The notes: generated from the sequence alone by a model not told the origin. Counted from the stretch's first letter, positions 1 to 4,279 are shown. The stretch: DNA of 4,719 nt from a virus (IMGVR_UViG_2706794668_000007), one strand, 5' to 3'. Numbers and translations are program-made.

Positions 1-760
1 GGGGAATATCTCCCCGGCAGCCTTCAGGGAAAAATATCATCAGATGGCTGCTTAAAAAAAGAACAAATGGTAGTGTCCGCTATTGCCAGTACACCTCAGG
101 ATAGCGGTCATGTGATGCCGGTTTCCCGGTAACTCAGCACCGGTATCTGAGTCAACGTTTTCTCTACTGGGTCATTTCCGATACGCCCTGCCTGCTGACA
201 GGCTTTCATCACATCTGAAAATATAGCACCCTGACTGATACTGTAGTACCTAAGGTTCCAGAAACTGTGATGTATCCGGNNNNNNNNNNNNNNNNNNNNN
301 NNNNNNNNNNNNNNNNNNNNNNNNNNNNNNNNNNNNNNNNNNNNNNNNNNNNNNNNNNNNNNNNNNNNNNNNNNNNNNNNNNNNNNNNNNNNNNNNNNNN
401 NNNNNNNNNNNNNNNNNNNNNNNNNNNNNNNNNNNNNNNNNNNNNNNNNNNNNNNNNNNNNNNNNNNNNNNNNNNNNNNNNNNNNNNNNNNNNNNNCCAT
501 GGTTCTTTCCACCATCTGAAAAATAATTCTTTAAAATACCTGACATGTAATACAGAAAAAACACAAAACCATACCTTAAATAAAAACCTGATTATCAAGC
601 AGATATGCATGGATAAACTACAAGACGAGATATAAACCACCCTGCATTTAAATAAACAATAAACAACATCAGAAAAATAATTCTGCTCTATGGTTTACAT
701 TCAAAAATATCATTTATACTTTTCAGAACATCACCAGCAAGGCATAAACAAGGAAACTAA

Positions 761-1096
761 ATGAAGTGGATTGTGATTGATACAGTTATCCAGCCATCAT
801 GCGGAATATCTTTTTCAGTCATATGGAGTAAAATAAAATTAATAATCTGGTATCAATCGGATGCTTTCTTACCTCCTGAAAGTATATTTACACTGACTCA
901 CACAGGCATCATGCTCAATAACAAAGTGCTACCTGTAACCATTTACAACGTAGTACCATTCAATAAAACATTCTGGAATTCAATCAAAAATAGCCAGGAA
1001 TGCCCTACAAATACAGATAACGTATTGAATGAATGCTTTAATAACCGTTGCACTCTGCAAATATGTCCTTATGGACTAAAACAACAAAGTCCATAA
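761..1096 (+). CDS. Hypothetical 111-aa protein encoded in the AT-rich island; unknown function
   Basis: ATG at 761 is preceded by AAGGA (751-755) at 5-nt spacing. Open frame runs to TAA at 1094-1096. The protein has a hydrophobic N-terminal stretch and five Cys, four of them in the last 31 residues (ECPT, NECF, NRCT, ICPY). Six of the Ile codons are ATA. I recognise no homolog. The orientation is opposite to the phage late operon. Caveat: in AT-rich DNA open frames arise easily, and the last 10 codons lie inside a 12-bp inverted repeat. Confidence 0.4.
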
Positions 1097-1099
1097 GGA
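1066..1099. repeat. Perfect 12-bp inverted repeat (tccttatggact / agtccataagga) with a 10-nt loop; overlaps the stop codon of ORF 761..1096
   Basis: Arms at 1066-1077 and 1088-1099 are exact reverse complements. No clean U-tract follows on either strand. Confidence 0.6.
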
Positions 1100-1115
1100 G
1101 TTTACTCACATCTGA

Positions 1116-1152
1116 CAAAATCAATATAAACAGCCCCTCCGGAGAGGGGCTG
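1116..1152 (-). terminator. Intrinsic terminator-like hairpin closing the tRNA-distal segment
   Basis: 9-bp GC-rich stem (1131-1139 cagcccctc / 1144-1152 gaggggctg) with a 4-nt loop. On the minus-strand transcript it is followed by TTTATATTGATTTTG (1116-1130). On the plus strand no T-tract follows, so the orientation is minus. Confidence 0.5.
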
Positions 1153-1347
1153 GAGAGTGGCGCTATGTGCCATTGCATGGTGCCGGGTGCCTCCCGGTGA
1201 ATTCAGTACCAGCACCTGAATCCGCGATTATCCCATATACCTACTCGCTGATTGCCCCTCCGCACAGGGGGATTCACCATGCCAGTTTCTTTTAACAAAC
1301 TCCCCGCAAAACAGACAACTGTCAACCGTCTGAATTGTGAGACATTT

Positions 1348-1373
1348 AAAAAAAAGGCCCGCAAAAGCGAGCC
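1348..1373 (-). terminator. Rho-independent terminator 15 nt downstream of the tRNA-Arg 3' end
   Basis: Minus-strand RNA reads GGCUCGC-UUUU-GCGGGCC (7-bp stem, six Watson-Crick pairs and one G-U) followed by eight U (plus-strand A-run 1348-1355). Confidence 0.65.
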
Positions 1374-1387
1374 AGGGAAAATAAGTG

Positions 1388-1464
1388 TGGCGCGTTGTAC
1401 TGGATTCGAACCAGTGACCGATTGCTTAGAAGGCAATTGCTCTGTCCGGCTGAGCTAACAACGC
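1388..1464 (-). tRNA. tRNA-Arg (anticodon UCU), 77 nt with encoded CCA
   Basis: Reverse complement of 1388-1464 is GCGTTGT TA GCTC AGCCGGACA GAGC A ATTGC CTTCTAA GCAAT CGGTC ACTGG TTCGAAT CCAGT ACAACGC G CCA. It folds into a full cloverleaf: 7-bp acceptor, 4-bp D stem, 5-bp anticodon stem, loop CU-UCU-AA, 5-bp T stem, T-loop TTCGAAT. Its position downstream of Q matches the rare-codon tRNA clusters (ileZ-argN-argO type) of Stx-like lambdoid phages. Confidence 0.85.
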
Positions 1465-1477
1465 ATGATGCAGATAA

Positions 1478-1512
1478 TGGACCGCCATCGGGGACTTGAA
1501 CCCCGCGCAGCC
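1478..1512 (-). tRNA. Second tRNA, 3' half only (T-arm, acceptor 3' strand, discriminator, CCA); 5' half lies in the N-mask; isotype undetermined
   Basis: Reverse complement of 1478-1505 reads CGGGG TTCAAGT CCCCG ATGGCGG T CCA, a canonical 5-bp T stem with a 7-nt T-loop, then a 7-nt acceptor strand, discriminator and CCA. It ends 13 nt upstream of the tRNA-Arg 5' end. The anticodon is masked. Confidence 0.5.
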
Positions 1513-2857: not shown

Positions 2858-2977
2858 GTCTTTTCCTTTTCCGGTTAACGTGACACACCAATAACTCTTG
2901 TCGAAAAAGCCAGCAAGCTGAAAGACAGGTATTCACCGCCACCAGCGCGTTTACTGTACTGACGCGATTTCAGTCAT

Positions 2978-3001
2978 AAAAAACCCGCTCGGCGGCGGGT
3001 T
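2978..3001 (-). terminator. Rho-independent terminator about 40-60 nt downstream of the pR' start (tR'-like)
   Basis: Minus-strand RNA reads AACCCGC-CGCCGA-GCGGGUU followed by a U-run (plus-strand A-run 2978-2983). Its position shortly after the late promoter matches the short terminated pR' transcript of lambdoid phages. Confidence 0.6.
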
Positions 3002-3036
3002 GTAGAAACTCTTCTAACGTCAGGCATAAAACGCCC

Positions 3037-3076
3037 ATCGTTATGACGAATTTACCACAGATTCCGGAAAAATCAA
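3037..3076 (-). promoter_or_regulatory. Late promoter pR' with lambda-type pause element (qut region)
   Basis: On the minus strand: -35 TTGATT (3076-3071), 16-bp spacer, extended -10 TGgTAAATT (3057-3049), then 6 nt and AACGAT (3042-3037). The run GGTAAATT-N6-AACGATGGG is nearly identical in sequence and spacing to the lambda pR' -10 and sigma70-dependent pause element as I recall it. It lies immediately downstream of the Q stop codon. Confidence 0.6.
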
Positions 3077-3081
3077 CCTTG

Positions 3082-3703
3082 TTACCTAGTTACCTTTTTT
3101 AACTGCCGCTCAGCCCATGCTTCTTCAATATCAAACCGGGTCACCAGCGCATCATAAAATTTCTTAACTGTTTTTTCCCATGACGCGCGTGTTATCTGGT
3201 TTGTCACCTCGCATATAGCATTAAATGCCTCCGTTGATGGTAGTCTTTCATAGCCACGACCACCACAACGCTGGCAGTCTCTGATAACAGGCATACCACG
3301 TTTTACCGACTCTTCACGATGAATGGCGACACCACGCCCACGGCAATCCTTACAGGCGGTGGAAACCTCACCCTTTCCGCCACACTCCGGACAGGCAACT
3401 TTTACCACCTCCCTGACTTTTTTCCATTCTTCCCAGTAAGACGGATACACACCTTTCGTACACTTTGCCCATACCGGCGGCTTACCATCCGGATACTGGA
3501 CCTTGTTTGTAAAAACTACGCTTTCAATAAATTTTTCCCCATAGCAACAAGGGCACTGCTTTTTACTCGCTGCGCTGCGGGCATAATCCTCAAAAGCGTA
3601 CGAAGCCATAATGCGCATCACTACCGGTTTTATTTCTGCCGGAAGTTTTCTCAACGCCGCCACACGATCGCACCGACTGAGTGCATAATCTGCCAGTAAT
3701 TCT
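3082..3703 (-). CDS. Q: Late antiterminator Q (lambda Q family), C-terminal 206 aa visible; N-terminus in N-mask
   Basis: The C-terminal region aligns with lambda Q as I recall it: AFEDYARSAA, CKDCRGRGV...DCQRCGGRGYERLP (Cys4 zinc-binding module), and ...FYDALV...KKVTR ending. An extra Cys-rich segment (CPCCYG ... CPECGGKG) is present upstream of the conserved finger. Stop TAA at 3084-3082; last codon is AGG. The N-terminal 19 aa of the track ORF (3954-4011) overlap rusA and are a read-through artefact. Confidence 0.85.
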
Positions 3704-3953
3704 NNNNNNNNNNNNNNNNNNNNNNNNNNNNNNNNNNNNNNNNNNNNNNNNNNNNNNNNNNNNNNNNNNNNNNNNNNNNNNNNNNNNNNNNNNNNNNNNN
3801 NNNNNNNNNNNNNNNNNNNNNNNNNNNNNNNNNNNNNNNNNNNNNNNNNNNNNNNNNNNNNNNNNNNNNNNNNNNNNNNNNNNNNNNNNNNNNNNNNNNN
3901 NNNNNNNNNNNNNNNNNNNNNNNNNNNNNNNNNNNNNNNNNNNNNNNNNNNNN

Positions 3954-4279
3954 AGACGTCCACCAGATACTGGCTGACCACGAACGATATTGATTTCATC
4001 AAACTGCTCATCGTCCATTAACACTCCCGCATGTGTCAGTGCATCCAGTGGTGCTTTCAGGATATTGTCCAGGTCACGACGGCGCTTATCCGGTGGCTCT
4101 GCAATAATCTTTATCGCCAGTCTTCCGGACAGGCTTAATTTCAGTCGCTGCTGACGGACAATAAGCGCCACATCCCGGCGATAACGCTCACCGGCTTTTG
4201 ATACAAAATATGTGTTGTCACGACGTCGCCAGTAAGTATTCACCGTCGGCGGATAAGGTAAAATAAACTCATGGCGCAT
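3954..4279 (-). CDS. rusA: RusA-family Holliday-junction resolvase, N-terminal 108 aa visible; about 12 C-terminal codons masked
   Basis: PPTVNTYW...DKRRRDLDNILKAPLDALTHAGVLMDDEQFDEINIVRGQPVSGGR matches E. coli RusA (PPSNNRYY...[30 protein letters not shown]...VTKGGR) as I recall it, including the catalytic acidic cluster. ATG at 4279-4277 overlaps the upstream stop by one nucleotide (TGATG). The 229-aa track ORF is rusA plus read-through across N. Confidence 0.8.

Follow-up and report, generated by a model that had tools for sequence, protein, structure and literature searches.

Identification of an STnc100-family small RNA gene

The intergenic segment that follows the tRNA cluster in the window (the whole stretch of 4,719 nt analysed here, from the virus IMGVR_UViG_2706794668_000007) is a complete gene of a small RNA (sRNA), and its membership of the STnc100 family is virtually certain. 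The whole window was scanned with Rfam, with matches reported up to E 10, and one strong match other than tRNA was returned: RF02076 (STnc100) on the minus strand at 1311..1122, with 133.6 bits (E 2.6e-30) over model positions 1-206 of 206. The curated gathering score of RF02076 is 47 bits. No riboswitch or ribozyme family matched the region at E up to 10. The initial annotation had read this segment either as a small structured RNA or as a decayed third tRNA of an ileZ-argN-argO-type cluster and had suggested an Rfam search; the match over the full model bears out the first of these readings. Moreover, the qPCR primers published for STnc_100 of Shiga-toxin-producing E. coli (PMC12370729) match exactly at window positions 1281..1262 and 1189..1208, and the amplicon is 93 bp, as published.

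The best explanation, which we consider quite probable, is a promoter-to-terminator STnc100 gene whose product has a pseudoknotted 5′ domain and a tail for Hfq and target pairing. The predicted RNA occupies 1122..1282 on the minus strand (about 161 nt), with a putative 5′ end and with its 3′ end at the U-tract. Lambda-like prophages of E. coli and Salmonella carry this self-contained sRNA module in an insertion-tolerant region that extends from the Q antiterminator to the lysis genes. A sigma-70-type promoter of its own would start the RNA at 1282, and the hairpin at 1152..1131 would stop it at about 160 nt. The first ~108 nt would fold into a closed multi-helix junction (P1, P2, P4 and P5) locked by a pseudoknot, and the remaining ~50 nt would form a short variable tail and the terminator. 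By analogy with tested relatives, Hfq would be bound via the 3′ part and the tail would base-pair with host or prophage mRNAs, and the conserved 5′ domain would be a stable scaffold or the bearer of a second function.

Since STnc100 is a curated Rfam family whose members have been reported repeatedly in EHEC, EPEC and Salmonella, the element is already known. The covarying pseudoknot, the measured positions of promoters and the evidence of exchanged tails given below refine the description of the family and do not define a new kind of element. For genome annotation, an unexplained intergenic segment becomes a named RNA gene. The locus itself is not new; the pseudoknot, the constant 5′ domain with exchangeable tails and the promoters placed at P1 provide experimental handles for a widespread family.

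Genomic context and the tRNA cluster

Read on the minus strand, the window represents the late-regulatory region of a lambda-like prophage; four of its stretches are masked with N. On this strand, the sRNA is preceded in order by a RusA-type ORF, a Q-like antiterminator ORF (3082-4011), a short ORF, a DNA methyltransferase and the tRNAs. In near-identical genomes the order is Q-like ORF, methyltransferase, three tRNAs, sRNA, and then esterase, holin and lysozyme, and the location typical of STnc100 in lambdoid phages, between the Q antiterminator and the lysis genes, is found here as well. Just downstream of the Q-like ORF, a weak Trp_leader match (21.8 bits) on the minus strand at 2975-3081 corresponds to a strong terminator hairpin, ACCCGCCGCCGAGCGGGU, with a U-run; this is probably the late terminator tR', which is annotated at the corresponding position in phage Nil3.

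The last gene of the Ile-Arg-Arg cluster is tRNA-Arg (anticodon TCT) at 1388..1464 on the minus strand, found by ARAGORN and scoring 70.1 bits on the Rfam tRNA model. The second tRNA can be recognised by its 3′ half at 1478-1512, beyond which the sequence is masked. Most of the second tRNA-Arg and the tRNA-Ile should lie in this masked stretch (1513-1750); it falls 13 nt short of the homologous stretch of L001 and L320, so that these tRNAs are only presumed to be intact in the window.

A decayed tRNA gene, or a tRNA-like element processed by tRNA enzymes, would suit the position of the segment directly after the cluster and the T-arm-like motif GGTGAATCC pointed out in the initial annotation. 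It would also suit the architecture of the junction, which is closed by a helix of 7-8 bp and in which a 5-bp hairpin abuts the 3′ strand without a linker, like T-arm and acceptor stem. However, ARAGORN finds only tRNA-Arg(TCT) at 1388-1464 in the window, and a relaxed search with the Rfam tRNA model, as had been suggested, is empty in 1122-1347 at E up to 10. The motif GGTGAATCC is indeed present on the minus strand at 1277..1269, but it consists of the end of a P1 strand plus the junction and forms no hairpin. Likewise, the P5 loop AGGCA is no T-loop (UUCRANY, 7 nt), and GGUGAAUCC spans the P1 end and the junction rather than a hairpin. The identical kind of RNA is found downstream of stx2B or of protein genes (e.g. 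DUF3927) with no adjoining tRNA, and the element has its own promoter and terminator.

The comparison with related phages points the same way. Near-identical genomes match window 497-1509 or 1128-1509 at 97-99%. In L001, L002 (phage Nil3) and L320, tRNA-Ile, tRNA-Arg and tRNA-Arg all lie upstream of the segment. Because these genomes carry all three tRNAs upstream (two of them masked in the window), no third tRNA position is vacant. With ARAGORN and the Rfam tRNA model empty and the Ile-Arg-Arg cluster complete in near-identical genomes, a tRNA pseudogene was rejected, as was the proposed third tRNA of an ileZ-argN-argO cluster, and we regard an origin from a tRNA as hardly conceivable.

Promoter, transcription start and terminators

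Judged from its sequence, the STnc100 segment is most likely a separate gene with its own promoter-like element and terminator. A sigma-70-like element can be read at 1289..1318 on the minus strand, with a -35 box TTGTCT (1318..1313), an 18-nt spacer ending in TG (1297..1296) and a -10 box TAAAAG (1294..1289). It scores 8 of 12 plus the TG, which is below the cut-off of the simple promoter scan, and hence is unlisted there. A perfect TTGACA at 1325..1320 was rejected as the -35 box, being 25 nt from the only plausible -10 box (1294..1289). The promoter block is kept upstream of E. coli-type STnc100 copies, and a sigma-70 match of at least 9 of 12, placed to start at P1, is found in 36% of 94 distinct family members versus 0.8% of control positions. 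In Salmonella LT2, RpoD ChIP-exo signal has been reported at STnc100 promoters (PMC10794520). In an alignment with the window, the RNA-seq 5′ ends of PasD1 and PasD2 fall on the homologous G of GCAUGGUG, and because of this the transcription start is most likely 1282, giving an RNA of ~161 nt. Homology across phage contexts runs from about 50 nt upstream of P1 to the terminator stem, and similarity to other contexts stops directly 3′ of that stem.

Both terminators described in the initial annotation are present. The one after tRNA-Arg (1348..1373, minus strand) has a 7-bp G+C-rich stem at 1373..1356 followed by T8 at 1355..1348, and is an upstream neighbour outside the sRNA. The second has its stem at 1152..1131 on the minus strand, followed by TTTATATTG at 1130..1122; since the STnc100 gene has its own terminator at 1152..1131, this is the 3′ end of the sRNA. 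The Rho-independent terminator that is a feature of STnc100 is thus found at 1122..1152, with a 9-bp stem (CAGCCCCUC/GAGGGGCUG), the loop UCCG and then UUUAUAUUG; it was detected by the terminator scan and is covered by Rfam model positions 175-206. Its U-tract, UUUAUAUUG, is weak, being short and interrupted, and is poor both for Hfq binding and for efficient termination. The boundaries of the originally described segment (1156-1347) need to be moved: the functional unit runs from about 1318 to 1122 (minus strand), with the downstream terminator inside the RNA, and 1347..1283 (~65 nt) is spacer and promoter.

Because a strong terminator separates tRNA-Arg from the sRNA promoter, routine co-transcription with the tRNAs, which had been proposed initially, is argued against and is not the best reading; the RNA also moves with its own promoter-like element into unrelated contexts. 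The initial interpretation is partly supported in that the segment encodes a structured RNA; it is no decayed tRNA, and co-transcription is unlikely as the main route. In lytic growth, Q-modified polymerase would read through both terminators, as is established for lambda, and on general lambda biology read-through from the late promoter into the sRNA is likely.

Such read-through could also be the only source of the segment, which would then be a cis-acting piece of the late transcript, for instance a signal for processing or stability of the downstream lysis genes, or the trailer at the 3′ end of the tRNA operon. The orientation shared with Q, the tRNAs and the late operon would allow this, as would a Q-modified polymerase that passes both terminators, and the northern bands of EcOnc27 (235 and 247 nt; PMC4104026) exceed the size predicted from the promoter to the first terminator. 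We nevertheless consider a purely cis-acting element improbable: a strong terminator (7-bp G+C-rich stem and T8) precedes the sRNA, promoters are positioned at P1 family-wide, relatives give discrete RNAs of the expected size under non-inducing growth, and the next downstream gene in the window is on the opposite strand.

This downstream gene is a 111-aa ORF at 761-1096 on the plus strand, which matches the anti-adapter IraM family (NF007393) with 162 bits versus a cut-off of 121. IraM is a regulator of RpoS stability in E. coli. The iraM-like ORF is prophage-borne and convergent with the sRNA, and its stop codon lies about 35 nt from the sRNA terminator stem.

Covariation of the 5′ domain and its pseudoknot

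The conserved structured 5′ domain occupies 1175..1282 on the minus strand (~108 nt). Homologues were gathered from IMG/VR by two patterns and a covariance model of the 5′ domain (R1) was built, on which the window scores 121.7 bits; 108 hits were aligned, of which 94 are distinct. A scan of genome contigs with a 15-base pattern, GCATGGTGAATCCNCC, gave chance matches only, in unrelated phyla. The domain is closed by P1 (1282..1275 with 1182..1175, GCAUGGUG/CACCAUGC), which encloses P2 (1270..1266 with 1259..1255), P4 (1223..1216 with 1206..1199) and P5 (1197..1193 with 1187..1183), all on the minus strand, and contains a variable insert at 1245..1224. This closing helix around P2, P4 and P5 is characteristic of STnc100 and is supported here by compensatory changes. 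Two of the helices had been recognised as hairpins in the initial annotation: ccggg-tgcct-cccgg at 1183-1197 is P5, and cccct-ccgcac-agggg, located at 1255-1270 and within one base of the position given there, is P2.

The folding energy is -69.5 kcal/mol, compared with -57.1 +/- 4.2 for shuffled sequences (z = -2.96), and 0 of 200 shuffles were as good. The minimum-energy fold of the transcript reproduces the covariation-supported helices. Among the 94 distinct homologues, 94.7% of cells are paired versus 79.0% after shuffling and about 44% with slid partners, and double-sided changes were observed in 380 cells versus 117.5 expected; 0 of 500 shuffles match the observed percentage paired, the number of double-change cells or the covariation score. 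P1 shows compensatory changes at 6 of its 7 pairs, P4 at all 8 and P2 at 3 of 5, so these three helices are supported by strong covariation. P5 is invariant among the homologues, which carries little weight as the search patterns fixed part or all of it. The junction and loop sequences GUGAAU and CACCGGGAGGCACCCGGCAC are nearly fixed across diverged members while the helices covary.

A pseudoknot (1208..1252, minus strand) is formed by AUCAGCG at 1252..1246, just 3′ of P2, and UGCUGGU at 1214..1208 in the P4 loop. A contiguous helix of at least 6 bp is present in 60 of 79 distinct junction/loop combinations, whereas shuffled loops reach 13% and non-cognate pairings 20%. The test was register-free, as the register of the MAFFT alignment shifts by one base between subtypes. 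These counts come from mutually related sequences and are not independent events, and the variety of the helix is the stronger argument: 49 different helix sequences were found, for example CUGGUG/CACCAG, UAAUGAC/GUCAUUG, CCAGUCA/UGACUGG and AAGGUUG/CAACCUU. The pseudoknot is absent from the structure line of the Rfam STnc100 consensus, and the word 'pseudoknot' is absent from the 2026 Pas preprint that compares PasD with STnc100.

The same alignment bears on coding potential. The segment had been described as holding no convincing ORF, and no conserved ORF was found in it. Two short reading frames might be considered, a 42-codon ORF at 1167-1295 on the plus strand and a 25-codon ORF from the AUG at 1280 on the minus strand. 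The NCBI pipeline places a 'hypothetical protein' pseudo-CDS at the equivalent of 1167-1292, and ribosome footprints were reported on some STnc100 copies of EDL933, with a ribosomal coverage value of up to 3.2 (PMC5331693). However, the domain lengths of the homologues (102, 106, 107, 108, 111, 115, 118 and 120-128 nt) differ by numbers that are not multiples of three, and the substitutions seen are of the kind that preserves helix pairing, not synonymous ones. No family match was obtained for the 25-aa product, ribosome coverage is low on most EDL933 copies (PMC5331693), and the annotation itself marks the 42-codon ORF as a partial pseudogene. From indel phase, covariation and the missing family match, coding potential was rejected, and a protein-coding gene is highly improbable. 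The NCBI feature (partial 'hypothetical protein' pseudogene, plus strand 1167-1292; 5068-5193 in L001) lies antisense to the sRNA and wholly within it, most likely as an artefact of the automatic annotation.

Variable 3′ tails and Hfq

Between the 5′ domain and the terminator lies a variable tail of 22 nt (AAUGGCACAUAGCGCCACUCUC; 1153..1174, minus strand), composed of a small hairpin and a C/U-rich single strand, which is the candidate target-pairing region. At other loci, the exact 107-nt core of the window's 5′ domain is joined to four unrelated tail types and, in addition, to a tail that differs from that of the window by one base. Each tail on the identical core brings its own terminator, and one of these is a PasD-type terminator. 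The northern probe for EcOnc27 of O157:H7 Sakai is the reverse complement of another tail type. In EcOnc27, the Hfq-CRAC peak is an 80-nt stretch in the tail (PMC4104026), and the RIL-seq chimeras of PasD map to the last ~50 nt, with a predicted seed UGUGAG just before the terminator. Because identical cores carry unrelated tails, and because the Hfq and target contacts of relatives lie in the tail, the STnc100 family looks like a constant 5′ fold combined with an exchangeable 3′ working end. A preprint by Zhu, Shabalina and Storz describes a common structure and ancestry of PasD and STnc100, with different seeds. By analogy with these relatives, we infer that the window's tail may act as a target-pairing seed; its predicted single-stranded part in the minimum-energy fold is only ~5 nt and the seed is not obvious.

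Relatives of this RNA are expressed. Eleven STnc100 copies are listed for EDL933; RNA-seq reads number in the hundreds to thousands for most of them, and a northern blot was positive for one (PMC5331693). Relatives detected by northern blot include EcOnc27/sRNA103, STnc100_4 (EDL933) and PasD1/2 (EPEC), and Hfq binding has been found for some of them. One is EcOnc27/sRNA103, whose 247-nt form loses stability when Hfq is missing; overexpression of sRNA103 raised fimZ and espA transcripts. The northern-positive PasD sRNAs have Hfq-dependent RIL-seq interactions. The levels of PasD1 and PasD2 are not lower in an hfq deletion strain (PasD transcriptome table S2), and for this reason Hfq dependence across the STnc100-type family is uneven. 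In published work, a direct target has been validated for no STnc100 member. On the strength of these analogies, the window copy is somewhat more probably than otherwise an Hfq-associated, trans-acting sRNA that pairs via its tail; its weak U-tract and short single-stranded tail are mild counter-indications to this class.

Divergent copies and the role of the 5′ domain

A second, divergent STnc100-type 5′ domain was found at 111..214 on the minus strand, with 35.2 bits on R1 (E 6e-5) and no Rfam report at E up to 10. Read from 214 to 111, it has P1 AUGUGAUG/CAUCACAU, P2 GCCUG-UCAG-CAGGC, P4 ACUCAG/CUGAGU, P5 CCGG-GAAA-CCGG (loop GAAA) and a pseudoknot AUCGG/CCGGU. In some genomes, the region of this second copy directly follows the STnc100 terminator. 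With window 1-279 as the query, the best match has at least 99% identity in 1,882 of 3,572 matching E. coli records and covers 97/98-279, which is unannotated. The best genome matches start at 97/98 and leave window 1-96 unaligned; the 1-279 query also matched 905 plasmid places, which points to a mosaic junction here or to the terminus of a mobile element.

Some viral contigs contain three to five STnc100 copies: L257 (342-1038), L267 (1726-2340) and L292 (4349-5513 and 8357-8555). In all three, the first three copies are arranged head to tail with a spacing of 253 nt, and their P1, P4 and pseudoknot sequences differ. The arrays adjoin a tRNA gene (L257) or an isrI-family match (L292). A more distant group (L245, L247, L251, L254, L260, L263, L271, L275, L288, L289, L297, L301 and L309) starts with GUGGUGAAUGCGGC or GCAGUGAAUGCGGC and retains P1, P4 and P5 and, in most cases, the pseudoknot; its scores on R1 are 32-45 bits, and a promoter match is mostly missing. 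An Rfam scan at the gathering threshold that included three of these members (L245, L247 and L260) gave no STnc100 match in them. Copies of the distant group may be embedded in longer transcripts.

A 108-nt pseudoknotted junction with near-invariant loops exceeds the needs of a simple stabilising scaffold, which raises the question of a function for the 5′ domain itself. One tentative and rather unlikely reading, though the most probable of the alternatives, is a dual-function or non-base-pairing RNA, in which the 5′ domain would be the effector (a protein site or decoy, or a small-molecule sensor) and the tail and terminator would be accessory. The 5′ domain is conserved far better than the tail, its helices covary around near-fixed junction and loop sequences, the 49 pseudoknot helix sequences indicate selection for a precise three-dimensional fold, and some viral contigs hold the tandem arrays of 3-5 copies. 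P2 and P5 are GGA-containing stem-loops, which we take to resemble CsrA-type sites and count in favour of this reading. On the other side, no partner is known, the Hfq contacts of EcOnc27 and the target contacts of PasD lie in the tail, the invariance of P5 is partly imposed by the search patterns, and the Rfam scan up to E 10 gave no riboswitch or ribozyme family in the region.

In the same vein, the pseudoknotted ~108-nt module of STnc100 and PasD RNAs might be a protein- or ligand-binding fold that stays constant in phages as the 3′ tail is replaced, although we give this proposal a low probability. The idea of a functional 5′ module fits because of the pseudoknot, the near-invariant junction and loops, the arrays of up to five copies and the divergent copy in the window. 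If it holds, STnc100 and PasD would be two-part RNAs and not ordinary Hfq sRNAs. The promoter-to-terminator sRNA with a pairing tail remains the preferred explanation for the window copy.

Comparison with known small RNAs and neighbouring elements

Several prophage RNAs resemble the window RNA in location. IpeX is an RNA of the DLP12 prophage in the Q-to-lysis interval of K-12; identity with IpeX was rejected, as neither R1 (filters off) nor Rfam matches anything in this K-12 interval. The ileZ-argN-argO tRNAs of Stx and related lambdoid phages are immediate neighbours on the same strand and in the same insertion-tolerant region, whereas no tRNA features were detected in the segment, which is not needed to complete the cluster of three. 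AsxR and AgvB (RF02703 and RF02702) are likewise modular prophage sRNAs between the late promoter and the lysis genes, but they are 51-60 nt long and encoded on the opposite strand, and their layout is reversed, with the variable part at the 5′ end and the constant part at the 3′ end. An AsxR/AgvB partner on the opposite strand of the window was rejected, as RF02702 and RF02703 have no match in the window at E up to 10.

EcOnc27/sRNA103 of O157:H7 (Sakai, EDL933) is located ~75 nt downstream of stx2B and shares its family and its Q/lysis placement with the window RNA. The identity between the two is about 70% and limited to the 5′ domain, and the EcOnc27 tail, AGUAUACAGAGAUUAGGCAUAUACCAAGGCC, is unrelated. 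EcOnc27/sRNA103 is paired with the convergent anti-sRNA AsxR, while the window has no AsxR. STnc100-type RNAs adjoin Shiga toxin genes, and in a machine-learning study of 2025, variants in the stx2-linked STnc100 copy were tied to severe disease.

PasD1 and PasD2 (EPEC E2348/69 prophages PP4 and PP2; EcOnc13 in Sakai) also lie between Q and the esterase or lysis genes. They are like the window RNA in promoter layout, in the 5′ start GCAUGGUGAAUCC, in the order of helices and in length (172-173 nt for PasD), and both are pseudoknotted, PasD with AAUGAUC/GAUCAUU. PasD scores 37.7-41.4 bits on the STnc100 model, which is below 47, compared with 133.6 bits for the window; it differs in P5 and in the closing of P1, and the window RNA has neither its tail nor its predicted seed UGUGAG. 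Identity with PasD was rejected, as PasD1/2 of E2348/69 are similar only in the promoter and the 5′ domain and have unrelated tails.

The closest known system is STnc100 itself (RF02076, 'Gammaproteobacterial sRNA STnc100'), first listed in Salmonella and present in multiple prophage copies in LT2 and O157:H7 EDL933. Its helices, its terminator position and its location in the prophage late region are all like those of the window RNA. The Rfam model takes in the promoter block, since it begins about 30 nt before the likely 5′ end. Compared with other STnc100 copies, the window copy is placed after a tRNA cluster and faces an iraM-like gene, differences of setting that are compatible with its membership of the family.
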